From a virus: DNA of 43,753 nucleotides. Made by a program: the position numbers and the translations under genes. This document shows positions 1,634-38,032 of this stretch, piece after piece; within the stretch, counting starts at the first letter, position 1, and each line of letters starts with the position of its first letter. The stretch lies in the IMG/VR virus record IMGVR_UViG_3300045988_081405, one strand, 5' to 3'. The notes beneath the pieces are model-generated. The model had not been told where the DNA came from. It saw only the letters and a list, made by a program, of their open reading frames with translations, and did no database searches.

Positions 1634-2026
1634 TTATTGCACCTCCTTGATTCGTGCTACCATTTCATTATTCAATTTGATATATTGCGCACTAATTGCA
1701 TTAGTAGGTTTCCCCATAAGTAGCAAGCGGCGTTGAGCTTCTTCTAATGTTTTAAATCGAGGTTCATACTCTGCTTTAATAGCATTAATTTTATCTTCTT
1801 TTGTTGGAACATATTCAACTATAGGTGGATCTACAAATTCACCATTTACATACGCTTTACCACTGATGAATTGTGATTGCATTTCACTATCCCCTGTTAC
1901 GATGTTAGCAGATGGATATGTTTGTTTGGCTAATTGTTCTGTTTCTTCAAGAGTATCCGCATGAACACCTACAACGTAGGAAGTTTGGCGAACACCATGC
2001 TCATTTAATACAAATACATAGTTCAT
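1634..2026 (-). CDS. Hypothetical protein (possibly tail-fibre associated or assembly-like)
   Basis: 130-aa ORF with an AAAGGA RBS. First minus-strand gene after the shufflon block. No recognisable motif. Confidence 0.5.
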   Translation of the reverse strand: MNYVFVLNEHGVRQTSYVVGVHADTLEETEQLAKQTYPSANIVTGDSEMQSQFISGKAYVNGEFVDPPIVEYVPTKEDKINAIKAEYEPRFKTLEEAQRRLLLMGKPTNAISAQYIKLNNEMVARIKEVQ

Positions 2027-2052
2027 ACTTTTATCCTTTCTTGGAGGTAGAA

Positions 2053-2958
2053 ATGAAATTAATCGAGAAATTAAAAGGGGCTCATGAACGCCCCTATGTT
2101 GCGTATAAAGTTGTTGGTTATTATTCCTCTTATAATGAGGCTATGGATGCATTATCCCATGTGCATACATTAGATGATGTGTATCATTCGTGGTTAGCGT
2201 TACATTCATTAAATGTTTCATCACATACCATGAAAGGATATGAATGTGCTTATCATCATGTATCATCAATATCTCACCGCCCTATCAACGAAATCACATA
2301 TATGGAGTTGCAAAATATAATATCAGATATGCTAAATAGCGGACTCTCTTATTCCTCGTGTAAGAAAGTTCGCTCTTTACTTAATCAACTATATTCATTT
2401 GCAATTATTAATGACTGGTGTTCAAAATCATACAGTCAATATTTGAATATTGGTCACAATATTCCAGTTCGTCCACGTAAGGTGTTTACTACGAATCAAA
2501 TCAACCGACTTTGGAATATCAATGCGGAATTACCTTTAATGCTCTTATACACTGGAATGCGTGCCAGTGAATTAATTAATCTAAAAAGTACAGATATTAA
2601 TCGAAAACAACGATATTTAAAAGTTACATCAAGCAAAACTAAAGCAGGAATCCGCATCATTCCCATCCATCATCGCATATGGCCATTTATTGAATATCGA
2701 CTATCTAATAAATGGATCATAGAGGAAAGGAATTATGTTTCTCTTTCGCACGCCTTTAAGTTAGCCATGAAAGCTATTAATGCTAAACACACGCCCCATG
2801 ATTGCCGTCATTCATTCGCTACTAGATTAGATGATGTAGGTGCCAACTACAATGCTAAACGATTATTGCTCGGTCATGCATCATCCAATGTTACAGATGG
2901 TGTATATACTCATAAATCACTTAGGCAATTACGCAAGGCAATCGAAATGCTTAAATGA
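2053..2958 (+). CDS. Tyrosine recombinase (predicted shufflon-specific invertase, Rci-like role)
   Basis: GGAGG RBS at 2043-2047 and ATG at 2053. Motifs are TGMRASEL (Arg), HDCRHSFATRL (HxxR) and LLGH...GVYTH (His/Tyr). Its stop codon abuts the first CCAAGGGGGAA site. Confidence 0.85.
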   Translation: MKLIEKLKGAHERPYVAYKVVGYYSSYNEAMDALSHVHTLDDVYHSWLALHSLNVSSHTMKGYECAYHHVSSISHRPINEITYMELQNIISDMLNSGLSYSSCKKVRSLLNQLYSFAIINDWCSKSYSQYLNIGHNIPVRPRKVFTTNQINRLWNINAELPLMLLYTGMRASELINLKSTDINRKQRYLKVTSSKTKAGIRIIPIHHRIWPFIEYRLSNKWIIEERNYVSLSHAFKLAMKAINAKHTPHDCRHSFATRLDDVGANYNAKRLLLGHASSNVTDGVYTHKSLRQLRKAIEMLK

Positions 2959-2969
2959 CCAAGGGGGAA
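2959..2969 (+). repeat. Recombination core site A (CCAAGGGGGAA)
   Basis: Exact 11-mer, immediately after the recombinase stop codon and at the start of silent cassette A. Confidence 0.8.
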
Positions 2970-3190
2970 GAGTAAATATTACTGTAGGGCGTAATATTTA
3001 CAATGATGACACTGTATACCCTATTGCATTTAATAATCTCCCATCAGTTAATATTATTAATATTGCTGATGCATTAGACCAAGATGGATGGGTAACTAGC
3101 GCAATTAAATCTATCACAAATTTAAAATTCACTTATATGACTGCACAAAATAGTGTAACTGGCATTAGTTGGATTGCTATTGGTAATTAG
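2960..3190 (+). other. Silent tail-fibre C-terminal cassette A (76 aa, QGGRVNIT...WIAIGN)
   Basis: Open frame beginning QGG at the core site. No start codon or RBS of its own. Shares the YPIAF and IAIGN-stop motifs with the expressed fibre tip. Confidence 0.75.
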
Positions 3191-3201
3191 CCAAGGGGGA
3201 A
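3191..3201 (+). repeat. Recombination core site B (CCAAGGGGGAA)
   Basis: Exact 11-mer directly after the cassette A stop TAG. Confidence 0.8.
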
Positions 3202-3431
3202 GAAAATTAAATTTAACCATTTATGATGGTAAAAAATATGATGTTCAATTTCCTATTTCTTATGCAAAAGAATGTATTGGTGTTTTACAAACATTAGAAT
3301 GGCCTATTGCTATTGGTGGTGCATCAGTTGCTTATACCGATAAAAGAACTACTACTGGTTATACAATCGTTGCTGATGCATCTAGTGCAGCATATAATAG
3401 TGATTTATTTTATGTTGCGTTCGGAATTTAG
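3192..3431 (+). other. Silent tail-fibre C-terminal cassette B (79 aa, QGGRKLNL...YVAFGI)
   Basis: Open frame from QGG at site B, in a different frame from cassette A. No start or RBS. Carries the FPISY and VAFGI-stop motifs. Confidence 0.75.
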
Positions 3432-3442
3432 CCAAGGGGGAA
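3432..3442 (+). repeat. Recombination core site C (CCAAGGGGGAA)
   Basis: Exact 11-mer directly after the cassette B stop TAG. Confidence 0.8.
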
Positions 3443-3696
3443 ATGATAGCGATACACAGGCCTATTACGATATAGGAAGTCAACAAAGGCAAGAGCAGTT
3501 TACTTTCCCGATAGCATTTAAATTTAAGCCATTACATGTACATCCATATGCAGTTAATAAAGTAGAATTAAGACATTTATCACGGATTGGAATTAGTGAT
3601 AGCCAAATTACACCTACTGGATTTACAGCTGGAATAAGCGAGAATTCTAATGTAATAGAACAAATTAAAATGAGGTATATTGCTGTTGGTATTTAA
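3433..3696 (+). other. Silent tail-fibre C-terminal cassette C (87 aa, QGGNDSDT...YIAVGI)
   Basis: Open frame from QGG at site C, in the third frame. Carries the FPIAF and IAVGI-stop motifs. Confidence 0.75.
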
Positions 3697-3707
3697 ATAC
3701 CAACAGC
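3682..3707. repeat. Perfect 26-bp palindrome GCTGTTGGTATTTAAATACCAACAGC at the convergent ends of cassette C and the expressed fibre tip
   Basis: Both convergent reading frames end with the identical codons GCT GTT GGT ATT TAA, and their stop codons overlap. Confidence 0.9.
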
Positions 3708-4679
3708 AAGCCAACAACCATTATTACGAGACTTAGGATAGTTAGTGTTATTGCTACCACTTACCATTTTAAACGTGCTCGCCGTGATCGCCTTTGGTCT
3801 AATCATCATCTCGTGCCATGGAGTTGGCTCATCTAGCATCATAGGAAGTACTGCCAGTACTTCGTTAAAACGAATAGGAAATGTTATAGATGCAATTTCA
3901 GGGACAAATTTTCCCCCTTGGATAATTAAATTCCCAAGCAGCTTGCCCAAACAGATATACCACGCATTTACATTGCTGAAATCATATCTGATTCCAAGGC
4001 CTGTTGCTTTCTCACTTTCCAAGGCATTGACTACATCGGTTGCGTTTTTGATGTTTAGTCCGCTCAAAATGGTTTTCACAAGTTGTAAAGTAGGTGCTTT
4101 TGCTAATGAATCGCTATCATCTACGCTAGTAATCATGTTATTTACTTGCTGAATAACAGCGTTGAAACGATCGTCATGTGCATGTTCGTCCTTATTATGA
4201 TGAGCAATACCATCTTCTAGTTGTTCATAAGTAATGTACAAATGACTTTGATAATTTACCTGAACAACAGCATCGCCTACCCCTAATTGAATACCTAACA
4301 TTTTTTCGTCAACGCTTGTATTCGGCGGAATATAACTAGCATTAGAGCCTGCATTTGTATAAGCAAATAATTGCTCTTCACCTTCTTCACCGAGTTTAGC
4401 GAACAACCCCAATTCTCTTGCGAAGAACCCTACTGTCAATCCACTATTGCTAACAGTAGACACAGCTTCGATTTCACCGTTGCCTAAATGATTGATTTTA
4501 GGAACATTTCCATCCATCAAACGATGTTTTAGGCCTGTCATAGTTTCGATAGTTTCACCATTTAACAAGCCATCGCCTAATGAAATTTTAGTAAATATAA
4601 TTGCAGAATGAGTTCTGATTGACTCCGTAACCATATTCTTCCCTTGATTGGTGGTTACAATTCTTCCATAATCACTCAT
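3693..4679 (-). CDS. Tail fibre protein (tail-collar fibre N-terminus; currently expressed C-terminal cassette D at 3693-3920)
   Basis: N-terminus is like P2/Mu-type fibre N-domains. Follows the baseplate genes. Contains the inverted core site inside the codons for IIQGGK. Confidence 0.8.
   Translation of the reverse strand: MSDYGRIVTTNQGKNMVTESIRTHSAIIFTKISLGDGLLNGETIETMTGLKHRLMDGNVPKINHLGNGEIEAVSTVSNSGLTVGFFARELGLFAKLGEEGEEQLFAYTNAGSNASYIPPNTSVDEKMLGIQLGVGDAVVQVNYQSHLYITYEQLEDGIAHHNKDEHAHDDRFNAVIQQVNNMITSVDDSDSLAKAPTLQLVKTILSGLNIKNATDVVNALESEKATGLGIRYDFSNVNAWYICLGKLLGNLIIQGGKFVPEIASITFPIRFNEVLAVLPMMLDEPTPWHEMMIRPKAITASTFKMVSGSNNTNYPKSRNNGCWLAVGI
3911..3921 (-). repeat. Recombination core site D (inverted copy, TTCCCCCTTGG on the plus strand) inside the tail-fibre gene
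   Basis: Reverse complement is exactly CCAAGGGGGAA and encodes Q-G-G in the fibre frame. Confidence 0.8.
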
Positions 4680-20947: not shown

Positions 20948-22213
20948 TTATTTCAATATGCGAACACCTTTACGGCCATCGAACTCTTCCATAGCGTAAC
21001 GCATGGCGTCCATTAAATGGTTGAAATCATCTATAGGCTTATTTATCGCATTGTCGAACTTATCTTTATCCCATGTGTAATTACTAATTTCTGTAATGAA
21101 ATTAACACACCTAGGATGAATAATAATTTTATAATCCTGGATAATCGAAATGCCGGCACGAATTGAGTCAGGTCCTTTTTTGGCTGCTCTAATTCTAGTG
21201 AGGCCAGCCTTGCGTAAATACGCAATCGATTTAGGTTCCGCGCTATCTGCTTTAATTCGTTCTTTGGAATATCCCATTCCGGATACTTTTGACAAAATAT
21301 CTTCATTGCTCATACCCTTTTCGTACATTTCGTCAAATACATATATTTCACGAGCTACTGTATCAACCAGGCCACAAAACAACGTGCTAGGGTCATTGAC
21401 ATACCCAAAGTCCATACCAAAGGCGGAACGTACACTAGGCTTTATTGATATTTCATGTACATCAAATACACGCTCTTCCCAATTTTCATAAACTAGACCT
21501 TCAACGATACCCCACTCACCAAGGCCAGCGGTTCTATACCGACGAGGGTTTTTCTTCATTTCCTCAAATAGTACCAAGTCCGCTTCGCTTAGAAACTCAT
21601 TGCACATGTAATTCGTAGTCATCGCCAGTACATTTTTACTAGGCTCGTCAAAGAATCGTTTCTTTAACCAGTGTCTATCAGACCATGGGTTAAAAGTAAG
21701 CACAACCTGGTGATACATTCCTTTAGGTAGCTGGCCACGAATACTTTCATCTAGTCGGTCAAACGCGTCCTCGCTGGTTATTTCGTACGCCTCCTCTATC
21801 CATAGCCTACACAACGAACCAACTTCAACGGTAATGGATGTAACCTTTAAAGGATCATCAAGGCCGCGGAATAATATTTTTTGTCCAGTCGGTTTATAAG
21901 TTATTTCCAAAGGTGATGTGCTGCACTTGAAAAAGTTATCCACCTTCAATCGGTGGATAGCCCATTTGAGTTGTGCATAACAGCTATCACGCAATGTGCG
22001 TTCAACTTTGCGAACTACCAACCAATTAATATTAGGGTTTTCAATAATTTCAGTAATAACCTTAAGTGATTGAGTTGAAGATTTTTTGCTTGCACGGCTA
22101 CCCTTAACAGCTTTATAACGGCCTTTAAATCGCCAAAATGCACCATAATGCTTTCCTACAATGCTAGGAAGATGAACGATAACTTGATTATCTTTAGTCT
22201 TCAATTTCATCAC
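20948..22213 (-). CDS. terL: Terminase large subunit (PBSX/XtmB family)
   Basis: 421 aa with an ATPase N-terminal and nuclease C-terminal layout. Overlaps the TerS stop. Confidence 0.85.
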   Translation of the reverse strand: MMKLKTKDNQVIVHLPSIVGKHYGAFWRFKGRYKAVKGSRASKKSSTQSLKVITEIIENPNINWLVVRKVERTLRDSCYAQLKWAIHRLKVDNFFKCSTSPLEITYKPTGQKILFRGLDDPLKVTSITVEVGSLCRLWIEEAYEITSEDAFDRLDESIRGQLPKGMYHQVVLTFNPWSDRHWLKKRFFDEPSKNVLAMTTNYMCNEFLSEADLVLFEEMKKNPRRYRTAGLGEWGIVEGLVYENWEERVFDVHEISIKPSVRSAFGMDFGYVNDPSTLFCGLVDTVAREIYVFDEMYEKGMSNEDILSKVSGMGYSKERIKADSAEPKSIAYLRKAGLTRIRAAKKGPDSIRAGISIIQDYKIIIHPRCVNFITEISNYTWDKDKFDNAINKPIDDFNHLMDAMRYAMEEFDGRKGVRILK

Positions 22214-22907
22214 CGCCTACAATAATAGGAACGAGCGTTTTATTATCTTCGTTTTGTTGTTTGATAACAGAAACTTCATTTTTGAGTTTAGCAATACGAG
22301 CTTTTTGCTCTTCAGTAGCTAATTCACTTCGGCACAATTCGTCATACTGCTTAATTAATCTCGCCAGTGTATCCATCGCTTTTGACTGTGCTTTAAGGAA
22401 CTTCTCCATACGAATATCTGCTGTAATTGTGTCAACATGCTTTTCAATTCGTTTAGTGTTCCCAAACTGGTCGCTTTCCTCAACTGTTTGAGTAACGCTT
22501 TCAATTTGCTTGTCTGCATTTTCACTTTCGATGAACATTATCTTTTGTGCTCGTATGATAGCAGCATATTTAATACAAATATTCCCCCATAGTATTTCTA
22601 TGGGGGTTATTGTTTCGATGTCTTCAATTACACCAATCATATCGAGTGGCAAGTACTTCGCAAATAAACCATGTTTAACTGAGTTTCGGTTTCCTATTGG
22701 TGCTCCTCCACTATTGCCAAGTGCGTTCTTATTGCCAATAGGAGCACCTACTTTTTTCTTTGGTGCAGGCTTCTTCTTAGGACGTTTCCAACCATGACGC
22801 TTGCGCCAAGATTTAACTGTTTCGATTGATACACCGTACTTTTCGGCTATATCTTTATAAGGAATGAACTTCTTATAGTCTTTCTCGGCTGCCTCATAGT
22901 TCTTCAC
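22194..22907 (-). CDS. terS: Terminase small subunit (XtmA-like)
   Basis: N-terminal HTH (IAEKYGVSIETVKSWRKRHGW) and repeated GAPIGNxNA motifs typical of this TerS family. Confidence 0.75.
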   Translation of the reverse strand: MKNYEAAEKDYKKFIPYKDIAEKYGVSIETVKSWRKRHGWKRPKKKPAPKKKVGAPIGNKNALGNSGGAPIGNRNSVKHGLFAKYLPLDMIGVIEDIETITPIEILWGNICIKYAAIIRAQKIMFIESENADKQIESVTQTVEESDQFGNTKRIEKHVDTITADIRMEKFLKAQSKAMDTLARLIKQYDELCRSELATEEQKARIAKLKNEVSVIKQQNEDNKTLVPIIVGGDEIED

Positions 22908-22936: not shown

Positions 22937-23128
22937 TTATTTAAGTATTTCATTTGATTTGTGTTTAAGTTTTCCATGTTCTCGTATGCACATACCACCA
23001 ACATGCTTTTTAGCGTGTGTATGAGTTATATATGACTGGCATAAGCCATCATATTCAATAGAATTAGCTGTGCATAGACCTTTTCTATTGTTCAAGCATT
23101 TACGCTTAATACAATTAATAACTGTCAT
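22937..23128 (-). CDS. Small Cys-rich protein (DUF1540-like)
   Basis: 63 aa containing 6 Cys. Confidence 0.45.
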   Translation of the reverse strand: MTVINCIKRKCLNNRKGLCTANSIEYDGLCQSYITHTHAKKHVGGMCIREHGKLKHKSNEILK

Positions 23129-23691
23129 TTCAAACTATCAATAAACTCACGTGTTAAGTCATAATCACTTGTGAATCTACCTTTTTTTGTGGTTGTTACT
23201 GTGTTAGATCCACGCGATTTAATACCGCGAGCTGTAACGCAACTATGCTTCGCTGTGATATGAACAATTACATCCTCACTATCAGTAGCAATAGAAATAA
23301 CTTCGGCGATGTCTTCACCGATTTTTTCTTGTAGTTGTAATCGTTTACAGCACATTTCAGCAATGCGAGGAATTTTAGACAACCCAATCACCTTGCCATT
23401 AGGAATATATCCTACGCTAATATTCATATCGTACATTAACGCTAGGTGATGTTCACACATGGAAAACGTTTCAATATCTTTCACTACAACCATTTGAGAG
23501 GTTTCAACTTCAAATGACTTGCCAAACTTTTCGGCGATTTGTTCGTTTGTGTAGTTCATACCCTCTAATAATTCTAAATACATTTTTGCAGCACGTTTAG
23601 GCGTTTCAACAATACCTTCACGTGTTAAATCTTCACCAAATCCTTTCAAAAGGAGTTTGATGCCTTGCTCAATCATATCTTGATTCATCAT
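23125..23691 (-). CDS. folE: GTP cyclohydrolase I
   Basis: 188 aa with the CEHHL motif and ETPKRAAKMY. Confidence 0.9.
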   Translation of the reverse strand: MMNQDMIEQGIKLLLKGFGEDLTREGIVETPKRAAKMYLELLEGMNYTNEQIAEKFGKSFEVETSQMVVVKDIETFSMCEHHLALMYDMNISVGYIPNGKVIGLSKIPRIAEMCCKRLQLQEKIGEDIAEVISIATDSEDVIVHITAKHSCVTARGIKSRGSNTVTTTKKGRFTSDYDLTREFIDSLK

Positions 23692-23695
23692 ATAG

Positions 23696-24340
23696 CTACA
23701 CTCCTTTCATATCAGGCGGCCAAATAAACTTATGAATTTGTAATTGTAACCTAACGCCTTGTAGGTTATATGTTTTCATATAGTCAACAATGTCTTTAGG
23801 TTCAATCTTGCCAAATACTGGTGATACATAAACTTGTGCTTTAAACTCATTTTCTTCAATCAGTTGACGCATGCGGTTAAGATCATCAAGACTACCGACT
23901 ACGAATTTAATAACATCGCAGTCCTCTAAATCTTGTAATGCTTCCCCATTATTCATAAACTCCTCTTGCTTAGAAGAAGGGCACTTGTAATCAACTGTGA
24001 ACATGACGTTTGGATAATTGCCGTATGAAACCACCGGATTAATGCTGCCGTTAGTTTCAATATTAACGAAATACCTATTCATAACGTTTAGTAATTCCGT
24101 TAAATCTTGCAATAGTGGCTCACCACCTGTGATAGTTACATTTACATTCCCATAACCATCGACTACTTGCATAATTTCTTCAACAGTCATTTCTTTACCA
24201 CCGGTAAAGCTGTATTCAGTATCGCAGTAAGAACAGCGTAAATTACATTCTGCCAAGCGAATAAACGTACATAATTCACCAGCTCGTGTGCCTTCGCCCT
24301 CAATACTACTAAATATTTCAATCACGTTCATATGTTGCAA
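23696..24340 (-). CDS. queE: 7-carboxy-7-deazaguanine synthase (radical SAM)
   Basis: IEGEG and the CNLRCSYCDT radical-SAM cluster motif. The true start is probably the MNVIEIF Met. Confidence 0.85.
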   Translation of the reverse strand: MQHMNVIEIFSSIEGEGTRAGELCTFIRLAECNLRCSYCDTEYSFTGGKEMTVEEIMQVVDGYGNVNVTITGGEPLLQDLTELLNVMNRYFVNIETNGSINPVVSYGNYPNVMFTVDYKCPSSKQEEFMNNGEALQDLEDCDVIKFVVGSLDDLNRMRQLIEENEFKAQVYVSPVFGKIEPKDIVDYMKTYNLQGVRLQLQIHKFIWPPDMKGV

Positions 24341-24656
24341 TATTCCCTTCTGTTTCTTGTACTTCTACCTTGTAGCAGCACTCACCTAACTGGTCGCATA
24401 TCCATTTAGCCATGTTTTCAGCTGTAGGGTTAATATCACCTACTACATCATTAATATGAGCATGGTCCAATCGGTCATGAATAGAACGTTTAATATGAGT
24501 AAAGTCCATAATCATTCCATTATGATTTAGTTTTTCACCTTTCATAAATACAGTTACTATCCAATTATGGCCGTGCAAGTTTTGACATTTGCTTTCATAG
24601 TCTAAATTTAATCTATGACTACCTGCAATCTCCATTCGTTTTGATACATAATACAT
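24318..24656 (-). CDS. queD: 6-carboxy-5,6,7,8-tetrahydropterin synthase
   Basis: 112 aa, T-fold, with the SHRL...C..LHGHN motifs. Confidence 0.85.
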   Translation of the reverse strand: MYYVSKRMEIAGSHRLNLDYESKCQNLHGHNWIVTVFMKGEKLNHNGMIMDFTHIKRSIHDRLDHAHINDVVGDINPTAENMAKWICDQLGECCYKVEVQETEGNIATYERD

Positions 24657-24666
24657 ACATTTCCTC

Positions 24667-25566
24667 CTAATCTTGACTACCTGCTACGCTTTGATAGTCT
24701 AATTTATTTAACAATGCTGATATAGCACAATCGGCTGTTCTAGGTAACGATTTTTCTTTTACCCCAAACAGCCGAGCTTGCTCCATATATTGTTGTCTAA
24801 TTTCTTTATTGTGATAGTTAATGTGCATATTGCCTTTTGACGTTCGGCTAATTCCAAACTGTAAAGGTGCTAGCCACGATGTACTATCTGCTGAGGTACA
24901 GAACTTATTTTGTTTTAGCATTTTAAGATCCGTACAGCCTAATAAGTGAATATCAATTTCAGGCTTTTTATTCTTAATGTACCATGCTAGTCTATGCGTA
25001 TCTTCTCTAAATGTTTTAGGGTTAGTGATACGCAACTCAGGAACACTAATCGCGATATACTCGGCAAATTCAATTAAGCGGTCTAACCCTTTACGGCCAT
25101 CCTCTTTGTGAAATACGTTGATTTGTCTATTCTTTAACTTATTACGCATCCTATATCGCAACTTCCAAGCATCTTCTGGAGATAACACCTTTTGACAATC
25201 AACTTCAACGCATGTCTGCTGTAAATCATTACTGTTAGTAAACTTGATTAATTTATCTTGCCAATCGACCAAATCATCATATGTAAGTTGTTTATCTTTT
25301 GCAGCACCAAACATTAAGGTAAATAACCCACTATCTTGAATTACATGTTTAAATTGCAAATCTTTTCTCATCATTGGAGCATCAGATTTCAATGTAAAGT
25401 CGTCTGTTATTTTTTTGTTGACAATAAACGGATAGCAAGTATACAAGCGATAATTCACGTCTGCTAACTTCAACCCAACAATGCTATTAAAGACATTATC
25501 TGAACCAGCAAAATGGATTTTGATGTTGTTTCCGAACAAGAACGGCACCTCCGTTTGTATCTTCAA
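24667..25566 (-). CDS. dpdA: DpdA-like DNA transglycosylase (TGT superfamily)
   Basis: VIQDSGLFTLMFG (catalytic Asp region) and SADSTSW motifs; context with folE, queD and queE. The start is uncertain (TTG at 25566, or a downstream TTG after GGAGGTG). Confidence 0.7.
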   Translation of the reverse strand: MKIQTEVPFLFGNNIKIHFAGSDNVFNSIVGLKLADVNYRLYTCYPFIVNKKITDDFTLKSDAPMMRKDLQFKHVIQDSGLFTLMFGAAKDKQLTYDDLVDWQDKLIKFTNSNDLQQTCVEVDCQKVLSPEDAWKLRYRMRNKLKNRQINVFHKEDGRKGLDRLIEFAEYIAISVPELRITNPKTFREDTHRLAWYIKNKKPEIDIHLLGCTDLKMLKQNKFCTSADSTSWLAPLQFGISRTSKGNMHINYHNKEIRQQYMEQARLFGVKEKSLPRTADCAISALLNKLDYQSVAGSQD

Positions 25567-25867
25567 TTACTTTGCAATAAGTTGCCGTTGGATATTCCGC
25601 CATAAGCCATTCAGCAATATGTTCACATGACATACTTTCGAATTGTGCATATCCTAAACTATCGCCGAATTCTTTTAAAATACGGTCTTTAATAATTCGT
25701 TGTTCATCGATGAACTCAATTTCACGATTAAGATCCATCACTGGGATATGTAATTCAATATTGAACATATGACGATGATTATTTCTTAAATACCCATATT
25801 TAGCAGGTGCATTTCTCCAGTAATGAAAGCCTTCTACGGTTACATTACATACAATAAAACTATCCAT
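25496..25867 (-). CDS. QueD-like T-fold paralogue of unknown function
   Basis: VEGFHYWRNAP..YLRNNHRHMFNIEL parallels the QueD pattern H..L....C..LHGHN..V.V. GAGGTG RBS. The ATG at 25867 abuts the ParB-like stop. Confidence 0.55.
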   Translation of the reverse strand: MDSFIVCNVTVEGFHYWRNAPAKYGYLRNNHRHMFNIELHIPVMDLNREIEFIDEQRIIKDRILKEFGDSLGYAQFESMSCEHIAEWLMAEYPTATYCKVIEDTNGGAVLVRKQHQNPFCWFR

Positions 25868-25868
25868 A

Positions 25869-26399
25869 TTACACCTCATACACAAATAAATTAGCGTCTA
25901 AATAATCGATAAGTTGTTGATAGTTTTCATCATCACATACAACCTTAACAACTTTTCCGTTATCTTCTTGTGCTGGTTTATCGTCTTTATCTTGTTGTGC
26001 TTCTTCTTCATCAAAGAAATCTGTTCTTAACTCATCTGCATTTAAGAAACCAAAATCTTCCATGTCGAGAAAATTAATATCTTTTAATTCATCAACTAAA
26101 GCACTCAAGTCCCATGTAGCAATCTCACCAACTTTATTGTCAGCCAACCTAAACGCTTTAATCTGCTCATCGGTAAGATCATCAGCAACAATACAAGGAA
26201 CTTCTTTAATACCTAACTGTTTAGCAGCAAGCAAACGAGTATGACCGCAAACTACAACGTTATCACTATCAATAACAAGAGGAACCTTGAACCCAAACTC
26301 TTTGATAGAGTTCGCTACATATTGAATAGCTTCTGTATTGTTACGAGGGTTATTTTCATATGGTACGAGTTTATCTACTGCAATATTTACAATCTCCAT
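25869..26399 (-). CDS. ParB N-terminal (ParB/Srx nuclease-like) domain protein with an acidic tail
   Basis: KLVPYENNPRNN...VVCGHTRLLAAKQLG signature. No methyltransferase domain is attached. Confidence 0.75.
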   Translation of the reverse strand: MEIVNIAVDKLVPYENNPRNNTEAIQYVANSIKEFGFKVPLVIDSDNVVVCGHTRLLAAKQLGIKEVPCIVADDLTDEQIKAFRLADNKVGEIATWDLSALVDELKDINFLDMEDFGFLNADELRTDFFDEEEAQQDKDDKPAQEDNGKVVKVVCDDENYQQLIDYLDANLFVYEV

Positions 26400-26459: not shown

Positions 26460-26554
26460 CTTTTGCGTAGATGTTTTCTGTTTATAAGAGAGTGAAAGTC
26501 CACATTTTGGCAATTCGCCCTTTGTTGACATCTATATGATACCACCGTCAATAG

Positions 26555-26634
26555 GGTGCACTCAATAGCATTTTAGGTGCACCTGGTGCAAATTTTGTTC
26601 ACATAGCGTTAATATAGGTGCAATTAGGTGCACC
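26555..26634. promoter_or_regulatory. Array of five GGTGCA motifs (two as the palindrome GGTGCACC) in the late-operon upstream region
   Basis: GGTGCA at 26555, 26576, 26585, 26617 and 26627. GGTGCACC at 26576-26583 and 26627-26634. Confidence 0.5.
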
Positions 26635-26694: not shown

Positions 26695-27159
26695 TTATTT
26701 CAAGTTTTTTTCGTAAAACGCTTCTTCCGCTCTACGGAGTAGTCTTTTGATGTAGTTTATTGAGTTGTTCGGCATGCCTAAACTTTTGTAAATTAACGAT
26801 ATAGCGTAAATATCACGCCTATTAATGTAACGTTCAGTAAGTACGGCTCTATATTTAGGGTCGCTAATATTGAAGATGCACCTCATCACATCGAGTTCGC
26901 ACTCAACCGCCTTTTCTTTTAAATCGAAAATACTTGATTTAAGCTCTGTGAGTTGATGAAACTGTTCCATGATACCTACTTCACCACCACCGCCTACGCT
27001 ATCCCCTAGCGAGCTTTTAGGTAAACCAGCTGGCCCCATTCGCTTTTGTAAGAGTTCTAGTTGTGCATGTAACGCTTGTTCTTCTAGGTAATAGTCATTG
27101 ATACGCATAATATACTCCCTAGCTTTTCTGCGTTGTATTTCTTTAGTAATTTTCTCCAT
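26695..27159 (-). CDS. Late-gene transcriptional activator (ArpU/RinA/DUF1492-like)
   Basis: Position upstream of the packaging block. The C-terminal region (RAVLTERYINRRDIYAIS...) resembles sigma-70 region 4. RBS AAAGGGG precedes the MEKITKE start. Confidence 0.55.
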   Translation of the reverse strand: MEKITKEIQRRKAREYIMRINDYYLEEQALHAQLELLQKRMGPAGLPKSSLGDSVGGGGEVGIMEQFHQLTELKSSIFDLKEKAVECELDVMRCIFNISDPKYRAVLTERYINRRDIYAISLIYKSLGMPNNSINYIKRLLRRAEEAFYEKNLK

Positions 27160-27190
27160 ACTAACCCCTTTAACGAGAACACAATATTCC

Positions 27191-27631
27191 TTATTTGTTA
27201 GTGCTACCAAACCCACCTGTACGCTTTGCCGTAGCAGTATCTTTATTGACTACCCTGTACGGCATAATAATAAGCTGTGCTAGGCGTTCGCTAGATTTGT
27301 AATAGAACGGTTCATCACCTAGATTTCTAATCGGTATCATGATATGACCTTCATTATCGTCATTGTTGTAGTAGTCAGCATCGATAATACCTGTACCATT
27401 AGCAAGCATGACATCGTTATTAATTCCCACGCTAGATCTTAAATGTAATTGAATATGCTCATCGTAGTTCAATCTGCATTTAATACCAGTCGGAATAAGT
27501 TTCGTTTGATGTGGTAATACGACGCCAGTTTCATAAGGCTTCACATCGTATCCTGCTGCATACTCTGTTTTTCGTTCCGGTAAATCAGCATCTTCATATC
27601 CTGTTACTCGCTCAAATTGGTTTTCATTCAT
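27191..27631 (-). CDS. dut: dUTP diphosphatase (trimeric dUTPase)
   Basis: AAGYD, RSS and GIIDADY motifs, with C-terminal RTGGFGST. Confidence 0.85.
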   Translation of the reverse strand: MNENQFERVTGYEDADLPERKTEYAAGYDVKPYETGVVLPHQTKLIPTGIKCRLNYDEHIQLHLRSSVGINNDVMLANGTGIIDADYYNNDDNEGHIMIPIRNLGDEPFYYKSSERLAQLIIMPYRVVNKDTATAKRTGGFGSTNK

Positions 27632-36355: not shown

Positions 36356-38032
36356 TTATTTAGCCTTCAATTCATTAACTTCTTTAGTTAACGCTTCAAC
36401 GAGCTTTTCGAGTTGGCTAATACGAGCATTTTCGCCTTTGGCTTCCGCTACATAGTCGCTGCCTTTACCAACCTTGAAAGCGACGTTTGCGGTAAATTGC
36501 TTTTCAGCACCTAAACTCATACCAGTGCCGAACATTATTCTTTCATTAGGACGATAAAACGCACCTAATGCAACCGCGTTGCTACTTCTATAATGGCCGT
36601 AGCTAATAGCGTAGGACGCTTTGTCGTCCTTATTAAAATCTAATGGATGCAAGCCTGCCAATGCTGCAGAACTAGCTCCCAATTTGTTCAAACGTTGATT
36701 TGTTGCATTGATTTCGTTTAAACCTGCTTGGCTTTGTGCTTTTAGTTGTCGCATGTTAACTGCATCAGCATCCGCAACTCCATCCGCTACATCGTGAATT
36801 TGTTGATTACCAGCAGTAATATTTTGAGTTGTGAACTCAATATGTTTGCCGTTGCTATCAGCAACCATTCCATCCATATTGAATTGAGCATTGTCTAAAT
36901 TGTCTGTGTTTTCTACTTTGAAGCCATTAGCTCCATATTCGGAGTTAATTTCTCCATTAAATACATGGCTACTATTTTTGCCAATATAGTTATGTTGTGG
37001 ATCATTAACCGTGCCCAATTGAATGGAATTCATGTTAACCAGGTCTTTATTCACATGAACCGCGAACTCTTTACCACCATCAATATTTGTTGATTGTGTA
37101 ACAGTTGTATTTCTTCCTTCGGCAACGGTAGTAAATTTAAGAGCGTTAATCACTGCATTAAGTTGGGAGCCGTTGATTGCGTCGGTAGATGTACCATCTA
37201 CTCTACCTGCTGCCACGTTGGTTAGTGTTCGCTTATAGTTTTGAACACCACCATTACCAGCTTTATTATTTGCTCCGATAGATACAGTACTGTTAGCTAC
37301 ACCGCCGGCGAAATCATATTTTTCACCATTGATGAAAATGTGGTCTGTGGAAATAACTTCTTCAGTAGTAGCGTTGGTACCTAACGCTACAGAATTTTGC
37401 ACATCGGCTACAGTATTATTACCGAGGGCCAAACTATCTACTGCTACTGCTTGGCTATGAGAACCTACAACAGTTGCCCCTTGATTTTTAGTTTTGTTAT
37501 TTGAACCAAATGTTAGCTGTTCTTTAGAATTATCAAGCACTTGGTTACTATAACCAACTACTGCGCCTTGCCCACTTTTTACTTCGCCATTGTTAGAGCC
37601 GACTACCGTCGCGTTTTCAGCGTTAACGGTATTAGTTCTACCTAATACAACTGTTGACTCGCCGTTTGCGTACGCACCATTACCGATAGCAATAGTGTTA
37701 TAGGCAGCAGTACGAGCTTGACTGCCGATAGCTACGGTATACTCGATAGTTGCTTCTGCATGTGCACCGTAAGCGAAACTATCACGGCCCAACGCTTTAC
37801 TATCATTGCCACCTGCGAACGAATTCGTGCCAGCTGCGATATTGTTTTCACCAAACGCTACCGCATTATTCCCTTTAATAGTATTTTGATACCCTACAAC
37901 ACCTGCACTCTTAACGCCTGCTTCTACAACGTTATCTGTACCACCAATAAAGTTATTGTCAGCAGCCAATACATTGACCGCCAAGGAACTAATTGCTAAT
38001 GCTGTTACCATTGCTTTTTTATTTGTATTCAT
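36356..38032 (-). CDS. YadA-like trimeric autotransporter adhesin with a C-terminal coiled-coil extension
   Basis: Signal peptide (SSLAVNVLAADN), repeated head motifs (NS.A.G), INGSQLNAV and VNMRQLK neck motifs, and a YadA-anchor-like AALAGLHPLDF...VAFKVG. This is followed by 35 aa of heptad sequence. Confidence 0.8.
   Translation of the reverse strand: MNTNKKAMVTALAISSLAVNVLAADNNFIGGTDNVVEAGVKSAGVVGYQNTIKGNNAVAFGENNIAAGTNSFAGGNDSKALGRDSFAYGAHAEATIEYTVAIGSQARTAAYNTIAIGNGAYANGESTVVLGRTNTVNAENATVVGSNNGEVKSGQGAVVGYSNQVLDNSKEQLTFGSNNKTKNQGATVVGSHSQAVAVDSLALGNNTVADVQNSVALGTNATTEEVISTDHIFINGEKYDFAGGVANSTVSIGANNKAGNGGVQNYKRTLTNVAAGRVDGTSTDAINGSQLNAVINALKFTTVAEGRNTTVTQSTNIDGGKEFAVHVNKDLVNMNSIQLGTVNDPQHNYIGKNSSHVFNGEINSEYGANGFKVENTDNLDNAQFNMDGMVADSNGKHIEFTTQNITAGNQQIHDVADGVADADAVNMRQLKAQSQAGLNEINATNQRLNKLGASSAALAGLHPLDFNKDDKASYAISYGHYRSSNAVALGAFYRPNERIMFGTGMSLGAEKQFTANVAFKVGKGSDYVAEAKGENARISQLEKLVEALTKEVNELKAK

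Follow-up and report, generated by a model that had tools for sequence, protein, structure and literature searches.

The virus record IMGVR_UViG_3300045988_081405 of IMG/VR (43,753 nucleotides [nt]; the whole stretch analyzed is called the window below) carries six contiguous, co-oriented genes on the minus strand, 26399..23125, which probably form a late-expressed, QueC-independent module for DNA modification, with 2'-deoxy-7-deazaguanine (dDG) replacing some or all of the guanine in virion DNA. In the order of transcription the genes encode a ParB_N protein, DpdL, a DpdA-like transglycosylase, QueD, QueE, and FolE (Table 1). The original prediction for this DNA had FolE, QueD, QueE, and the DpdA-like enzyme contiguous and upstream of terS, which was borne out by the gene calls and by the Pfam, NCBIfam, and PHROG comparisons, and it had the module stop at QueE, which turned out not to be right. 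By its sequence and modelled structure, the QueD paralogue of the block is DpdL, and therefore the pathway does not end at QueE, the step after 7-carboxy-7-deazaguanine (CDG) being encoded as well. A design lacking QueC has already been published and is not a fresh puzzle. The locus is a version of the known dDG/DpdL system that differs by its DpdA clade, ParB-like partner, temperate lifestyle, and human-microbiome hosts, and it is not a new type of system.

Precursor genes, QueC, and DpdL

FolE, QueD, and QueE convert GTP to CDG by an established pathway, and all three were readily recognized in the window. QueD keeps the CxxxHGH motif; QueE has the cluster motif CxxxCxxC in the form CNLRCSYC and matched best the Clostridial-type QueE model TIGR03963, with a score (250.7 bits) slightly below the 260.1 cutoff. 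The canonical pathway to 7-cyano-7-deazaguanine (preQ0) runs through FolE, QueD, QueE, and QueC, and the last of these is missing from the window. No SGGxDS motif was found in any six-frame segment of at least 30 amino acids (aa), and a QueC profile, for which nine diverse sequences from phages and bacteria served as seeds, gave at best 4.2 bits (E = 1.2) over all six frames with the HMMER filters off. In a leave-out control, the divergent QueC of Bacillus phage BCD7 was recovered by such a profile at 2e-31. A Pfam scan of every called gene likewise detected no QueC, QueF, ArcS, or Gat-QueC. With the genome closed (see below) and the motif, six-frame profile, and Pfam searches all negative, the earlier statement that there is no QueC anywhere in the genome is upheld, and the Pfam scan agrees with the claimed lack of Gat-QueC, QueF, and ArcS.

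A tblastn search with the QueD paralogue landed exactly on CGPG_00067 of Cellulophaga phage phiST (4e-12, 37% identity over 88% of the query). CGPG_00067 is DpdL, a QueD paralogue and proposed CDG decarboxylase in which CxxxHGH is changed to LxxxHRHxF (PMC10516641). Phage phiST encodes FolE, QueD, QueE, and DpdL but not QueC, and its DNA contains dDG, with deoxyguanosine (dG) undetectable (PMC10516641). The window protein reads YLRNNHRHMF, i.e., LxxxHRHxF where QueD has CxxxHGH, so that the catalytic Cys is lost and replaced by Leu and the metal-binding His is kept; L27, H31, R32, H33, and F35 were invariant in an alignment of 18 homologues. The protein had no match in Pfam or NCBIfam. Its AlphaFold model (pLDDT 89) had E. 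coli QueD (4ntk) or other members of the 6-pyruvoyltetrahydropterin synthase (PTPS) family as its top 19 Foldseek matches in the PDB (best E, 4e-6). An exhaustive profile search found 3,059 representatives of the family at the 50%-identity level, and the top 150 of these had LxxxHRHxF in 147 cases and CxxxHGH in none. In the window, the dpdL gene starts at ATG 25867, one base past the stop codon of the ParB gene, and its Shine-Dalgarno sequence, GAGGTG, is supplied by the last ParB codons.

Two kinds of DpdL fusion were seen in metagenomes. In about 20 of the top 150 relatives (e.g., P0145, P0162, and P0207), DpdL is joined to a P-loop kinase-like domain (AAA_17/18/33). The second kind, an apparent fusion of DpdL with a Vut_1 transporter (P0157), is a single case and suggests an imported free base as the substrate of DpdL.

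Table 1. Genes and sites of the modification block and its surroundings in the window
Feature	Coordinates	Strand	Basis or remark
Stand-alone ParB_N-like protein, 176 aa	25869..26399	-	PF02195 3e-8; phrog_620 1e-53
DpdL, 123 aa, proposed CDG decarboxylase	25496..25867	-	Match to phiST CGPG_00067; LxxxHRHxF; QueD/PTPS fold
Putative DpdA-family DNA guanine transglycosylase, 290-299 aa	24667..25566	-	phrog_887; model with fold of tRNA-guanine transglycosylase (TGT)
A7 homopolymer, dpdA codons ~48-52	25410..25416	-	A8 allele in relatives frameshifts the gene
QueD, 6-carboxytetrahydropterin (CPH4) synthase	24318..24656	-	PF01242 4e-30; TIGR03367 96.7 bits vs cutoff 89.25
QueE, radical-SAM CDG synthase	23696..24340	-	TIGR03963 1e-74; PF04055 2e-11
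FolE, GTP cyclohydrolase I	23125..23691	-	PF01227 9e-60; TIGR00063 187.7 bits vs cutoff 181.6
terS	22907..22194	-	Downstream of block, after one 63-aa open reading frame (ORF)
terL	22213..20948	-	Follows terS
DUF1492 late-regulator gene	27216..26695	-	Just upstream of box cluster
GTGCACC/TGCACC box cluster, candidate operator	26555..26634	-	5 of 7 genome-wide GTGCACC matches within 80 nt

DpdA, the ParB-like partner, and their conservation

The transglycosylase most likely starts at TTG 25539, which is preceded by GGAGG, with 25566 as the alternative, and overlaps the 3' end of dpdL by at least 44 nt. It matched phrog_887 ("queuine tRNA-ribosyltransferase") at 5e-21 and no Pfam or NCBIfam model at E ≤ 0.01, PF01702 and the TGT models included; its family profile gave chance matches only against the PDB sequences, with no TGT or DpdA among them. 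The structural model (pLDDT 91, pTM 0.89) is a TGT-type TIM barrel whose top PDB matches were archaeosine TGT, bacterial TGT, and QTRT1 (1iq8, 2nso, 1s39, and 6h62) and whose viral Foldseek matches included annotated phage queuine tRNA-ribosyltransferases as well as nt-1 R9TGF0. The residues D72-x3-F76, D117, H147, L203, and D221 were invariant in 33 sequences and were matched, by order and similar spacing only, to the catalytic D95/F99, D130, H181, L236, and D256 of Salmonella DpdA. In DpdA enzymes the three active-site Asp are a general acid/base with Phe at +4, a base-recognition residue, and the nucleophile.

Profile comparison covered BCD7_0021, SE1 DpdA1, phiST DpdA3, and DpdA4, while DpdA2 was represented only by a Foldseek match at rank 18. 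The window DpdA aligned with BCD7_0021 at an hhalign probability of 96.5% (E = 1e-9, 206 columns) and with SE1 DpdA1 at 40.5% (E = 3e-4, 141 columns); BCD7_0021 and SE1 DpdA1 aligned with each other at 93.8%. The values were 2% for DpdA4 and 2 to 3% for the phiST DpdA3 (CGPG_00065), of which just the HxLG...DS motif was aligned. We had at first assumed the enzyme to be a DpdA3, the partner of DpdL in phiST; this identity was rejected on a BLASTP E value of 0.046 over 27 residues and on the hhalign result. Judged by these profiles, the enzyme belongs to a clade distinct from DpdA3 and DpdA4, its nearest reference being the TGT-like protein of BCD7, which itself links to the DpdA1 of the 9g type. 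The search detected 1,545 homologues, nearly all from metagenomes and mostly from gut and oral prophages, and none of them has a Pfam domain.

The close relatives of the window differ in a homopolymer within dpdA. The A7 form, which leaves the gene intact, was present in the window, in the prophage of a Veillonella montpellierensis isolate, and in three IMG/VR contigs, while an A8 form that frameshifts dpdA was present in six independent assemblies, i.e., 6 of the 11 near-identical sequences (the comparison being L012-L015, L064, and L066 versus L021 and L053-L055), and there just a 235-aa C-terminal fragment was called. The truncated product (cluster P0004) occurred in 83 blocks of the contig collection. 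Either decay of the gene or slipped-strand switching that turns DNA modification on and off could lie behind this difference in the poly-A tract.

We then surveyed 116 loci from GTDB genomes, IMG/VR, and metagenome contigs with local profiles. They formed 40 DpdA clusters at 90% identity, of which 37 were evaluable for DpdL and the supply genes and 35 for ParB. The gene most tightly linked to DpdA was DpdL, found directly upstream of it in 30 of the 37 clusters (Table 2); it was present in 17 of the 17 clusters with de novo genes versus 13 of the 20 without them (Fisher P = 0.009). QueC was found in a single one of the 116 loci (L031), which has no DpdL, and the two were never found together. 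Were CDG consumed by either DpdL or QueC, such a distribution would be expected, and it counts against reliance on host QueC. The QueC-bearing relative has the gene order DpdA-QueC-Vut_1-ParB-ParB (L031:2163-5752) and, as a natural "swap" variant, would presumably produce preQ0 from host-supplied or imported CDG. The supply of precursor is modular, by de novo genes, by a YhhQ-type transporter, or by both. Loci with the transporter include L001 (Faecalibacterium phage Roos), L016, L023, L028, and L029. The hosts named in the records are Veillonella, Faecalibacterium, Oscillospiraceae, Bacteroidales, Paludibacteraceae, Prevotellaceae, and Treponema.

Table 2. Gene content around DpdA in the 37 evaluable clusters
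Gene content	Clusters
DpdL + QueD-QueE-FolE	13/37
DpdL + YhhQ-type (Vut_1) transporter, no de novo genes	12/37
DpdL + both supply routes	4/37
DpdL alone (contig stops 2 nt past DpdA)	1/37
Transporter, without DpdL and without QueC	5/37
QueC + transporter, without DpdL (L031)	1/37
None of DpdL, QueC, transporter, or de novo genes (L045)	1/37

The first gene of the block encodes a protein that has a short acidic tail and, in GHTRLLAA, the canonical GxxRxxA nucleoside triphosphate (NTP)-binding motif; it is closest to the ParB_N domain that forms the N terminus of ParB-methyltransferase fusions in phages (phrog_498, 2e-41). For the survey, its profile was iterated once and run with the HMMER filters off. 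Within the window the iterated profile matched the ParB ORF only, and in the six reference DpdA loci (phiST, BCD7, MA9V-3, SE1, HVTV-1, and BUCT-ZZ01) it had no match. A ParB_N-like gene was contiguous with the module in 35 of the 35 evaluable clusters, immediately upstream of DpdL (or DpdA) in 31 and elsewhere in the same block in 4, and its GxxR core was kept in at least 80% of the clusters. Since phages of Bacillota often have a ParB_N gene ahead of terS, we considered a positional coincidence; it was rejected, as all seven apparently ParB-negative loci proved positive, the ORF just ahead of DpdL being in each a divergent ParB_N-like one, which Pfam detected, weakly, in only two of the seven. 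The ParB-like gene is thus not incidental to the module, and the earlier view that it and the QueD paralogue lie outside the minimal pathway does not hold. Many ParB-like partners (L125, L036, L034, L123, L039, L121, L032, and others), mostly from Bacteroidota-type loci, have a conserved zinc-ribbon-like tail, CPHCG(K/E)N, that is absent from the window protein, and four Bacteroidota-type partners (L125, L034, L035, and L038) have lost the Arg of GxxR.

The DpdA of Salmonella Montevideo requires DpdB, a ParB-fold ATPase, for base exchange (PMC10164549), and a ParB-like ORF beside DpdA in a mycobacteriophage has been suggested to be a dpdB homologue (PMC6392294). Because of the strict gene linkage and the analogy with bacterial DpdB, we propose that the ParB-like protein is an accessory NTPase or DNA-loading partner of DpdA, one that would work like DpdB without being a member of the DpdB family.

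Proposed pathway and competing explanations

The pathway that we consider probable would have four steps. FolE, QueD, and QueE, whose identities are clear from their matches, would turn GTP into CDG; DpdL, with its catalytic Cys changed to Leu, would decarboxylate CDG to 7-deazaguanine; the divergent TGT-fold DpdA would swap guanine for 7-deazaguanine in double-stranded phage DNA after replication; and the co-translated ParB_N-like protein would serve DpdA as an NTP-dependent partner. Since the block lies between the late regulator and terS, it would share transcription with the packaging and structural genes, and the genomes would be modified shortly before packaging and be protected against host restriction at the next infection. 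The modified base, the chemistry of DpdL, and the role of ParB are the inferred parts of this scheme, as is a CDG-derived base as the substrate of DpdA on DNA.

Several observations weigh against this scheme. Expression of dpdL and dpdA in E. coli did not lead to detectable dDG (PMC10516641), and the decarboxylase activity of DpdL is itself a prediction, the conversion of CDG to 7-deazaguanine being taken from the same work. The 12 clusters with DpdL and the transporter but without FolE, QueD, and QueE have no obvious source of CDG, and DpdL could act on a different base. The window DpdA falls outside DpdA3, a subfamily for which dDG and full replacement of guanine are on record, and about half of the near-identical relatives have a frameshifted dpdA. 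As for the ParB-like protein, it has neither the DGQQR motif nor the C-terminal domain of DpdB, and its close homologues include some from Streptococcus phages without DpdA.

Of the two outcomes that the original prediction left open, dependence on host QueC or a base derived directly from CDG, the presence of DpdL favors the latter, which could still take another form: DpdA might insert CDG itself, giving its deoxynucleoside (dCDG), with DpdL then acting on DNA or with dCDG as the final product. In its favor, DpdA3 was considered in a 2023 paper to be a possible inserter of CDG as a common precursor, the DpdA2 of VH7D inserts CDG with low efficiency in a queC mutant, and dCDG occurs naturally in STSV-2. 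We nevertheless regard this as unlikely, because dCDG was not detected in phiST DNA and the authors of that study predicted from structural analysis that DpdL acts on the free base (PMC10516641); the DpdL-YhhQ fusion P0157, a single case, also points to a free-base substrate.

The other outcome, in which host QueC turns overproduced CDG into preQ0, DpdA inserts it as dPreQ0 in the manner of CAjan-type phages, and DpdL is unrelated or regulatory, appears quite unlikely. The phage does lack a QueC of its own, within the family its DpdA is nearer to DpdA1 and BCD7 than to DpdA3, and most DpdA enzymes tested to date insert preQ0 (PMC10516641). Reliance on the host is disfavored by the mutual exclusion of QueC and DpdL in the 116 loci, where the lone relative with QueC is without DpdL, by the occurrence of DpdL in every one of the CDG-making clusters, and by phiST, which has the same gene set and contains dDG and not dPreQ0.

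We hold it to be very unlikely that many virions are unmodified because a large part of the population has a decaying or silenced module. The A8 allele in 6 of the 11 near-identical assemblies and the 83 blocks with P0004 speak for it, but the tract is intact in the window and in the isolate prophage, all six genes are intact, and the family-invariant residues of DpdA are kept. Finally, FolE, QueD, and QueE belong to the queuosine pathway and the transglycosylase is TGT folded, yet it is extremely improbable that the block serves, as an auxiliary metabolic module, the queuosine metabolism of host or phage tRNA instead of DNA modification: there are no phage tRNAs and no preQ1 riboswitch ahead of the block, the transglycosylase is a minimal 290-aa barrel matching no Pfam or NCBIfam TGT model, QueC and QueF, needed for tRNA preQ1, are absent, and within a late packaging operon the module is linked to a ParB-like protein that binds DNA.

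Going beyond the probable dDG pathway, we tentatively offer a broader possibility, itself doubtful: the ParB-like protein would be an obligatory NTP-driven cofactor of this DpdA clade, the counterpart in phages of bacterial DpdB, and ParB-DpdL-DpdA would be a self-contained 7-deazaguanine cassette in thousands of temperate phages of human gut and oral anaerobes, fed de novo or by a YhhQ-type importer. If so, DpdL in the importer-fed cassettes would also be able to process a salvaged base, and the cassette would perhaps be switched on and off via the dpdA poly-A tract. An NTPase partner, ParB-like here and P-loop kinase-like in phiST, may be general to such systems, and its absence could account for the failure of DpdL and DpdA alone in E. 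coli.

Genome context, related systems, and implications

The window has an exact terminal repeat of 55 nt and is therefore a closed phage genome, of 43,698 bp. Pfam, run on every gene, found genes for lysogeny and the early phase (an integrase, CI/Cro/ImmA, and a helix-turn-helix protein that is excisionase-like), replication and recombination genes (RecT, DnaD, and DnaC-like), a dUTPase and the DUF1492 late regulator preceding the modification block, structural genes (terminase, SPP1-type portal, capsid, sheath, tube, and baseplate), and lysis genes (holin and M15 endolysin). The phage is temperate and has a contractile tail. A scan of the genome collection found a prophage of V. montpellierensis DSM 17217 with a DpdA 96% identical to that of the window, and the host group is Veillonella, an anaerobic Negativicute. 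Such a host is consistent with the YadA-type trimeric autotransporter adhesin gene in the early/lysogeny region (36356-38032, minus strand; 558 aa with head, stalk, and anchor domains and a signal peptide), a gene that marks a diderm (Negativicutes) host and may serve in lysogenic conversion. A DNA-level search of known phages matched the ParB region only, at ~70% identity to Streptococcus and Lactobacillus phages, and no close known phage was found. No tRNA genes or Rfam families, the preQ1 riboswitch included, were detected in the window.

A scan for promoters and terminators gave 12 sites in the window versus 18.8 expected by chance, hence no excess, and none of the terminator-like sites lies between the block and terS. 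Ahead of the ParB gene, a gap of 295 nt contains a promoter-like site (26565..26536; TTGAGT-18-TATCAT, with an extended -10) and the box cluster: GTGCACC has seven matches genome-wide versus 2.5 expected, and two of the five clustered ones are the palindromic GGTGCACC. The cluster and this site are, with low confidence, candidates for the operator and late promoter of the operon. The Cys-rich 63-aa ORF between FolE and terS (22937-23128, minus strand) belongs to phrog_33034, in which no function is assigned; its start overlaps the FolE stop, and it is conserved in the close relatives L012-L015. Positions 1912-4679 hold a shufflon-like switch for the tail-fibre tip. A 13-nt site encoding QGG, AGCCAAGGGGGAA, occurs on the plus strand at 2957, 3189, and 3430 and inverted inside the tail-fibre gene at 3911-3923 (5 matches versus 0.62 expected); three promoterless fragments each start at a QGG site and end like the fibre C terminus (...A[V/I/F]G[I/N]), and the adjoining tyrosine recombinase (1912-2958) is a candidate invertase.

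The phiST system (PMC10516641) shares with the locus the supply genes, DpdL, the lack of QueC, and a TGT-like transglycosylase beside DpdL. It differs in that its transglycosylase is DpdA3, whereas that of the window is of another clade (2 to 3% in hhalign), and in having, instead of a ParB_N-like partner, CGPG_00066 (L002:6323-6802, an AAA_18 P-loop kinase-like protein encoded between DpdL and DpdA3) and a MazG-like gene beside DpdL. phiST infects a marine member of Bacteroidota and has no lysogeny genes in the stretch of its record examined, whereas the window phage is temperate and infects a Negativicute; and dDG was measured in phiST, whereas for the window phage it is predicted. The Dpd system of Salmonella Montevideo (PMC10164549) likewise has a gene for a TGT-fold DNA transglycosylase beside a ParB-fold gene. 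Its DpdB, however, is ~400 aa long, with DGQQR and an SspE-like alpha-helical C-terminal domain, whereas the phage protein has 176 aa and GxxRxxA, and its DpdA inserts preQ0, which DpdC converts to 7-amido-7-deazaguanine (ADG); the window phage has no DpdC-K restriction module. Phages of the Enterobacteria phage 9g/CAjan/SE1 type (DpdA1; PMC6884629) also encode a de novo deazaguanine pathway with DpdA, to which the window DpdA has a weak but detectable profile similarity bridged by BCD7_0021. They differ in encoding QueC or Gat-QueC, inserting preQ0 or G+, and having no DpdL, and no ParB-like neighbor was found in the SE1 locus. For the core genes, the closest cultured relative is Faecalibacterium phage Roos (PP479939; PMC11792537), which is temperate and inducible, with ParB_N, DpdL (43% identity), and DpdA (50%) in the same order but with a Vut_1/YhhQ-type transporter where the window has FolE, QueD, and QueE. 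Its core genes are all annotated "hypothetical," and DNA modification is not mentioned in the Roos paper (PMC11792537).

The survey offers independent genomic support for DpdL as the alternative to QueC, the two being mutually exclusive and DpdL always being there when the gene content predicts that CDG is made. Candidates for the factor missing from the failed reconstitution are, in this locus, the ParB-like partner and, in phiST, its P-loop kinase-like protein. Two tractable test systems are offered by Roos, whose induction is established, and by the V. montpellierensis DSM 17217 prophage. Current annotation misses a large DpdA clade, with more than 1,500 homologues that match no Pfam or NCBIfam model, in prophages of Veillonella, Faecalibacterium, Oscillospiraceae, Bacteroidales, and Treponema. 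Among temperate phages of the human microbiome, DNA modified with deazaguanine may thus be common and, if it is, would bear on restriction evasion, on glycosylase-based defenses, and on the sequencing and cloning of such phages.

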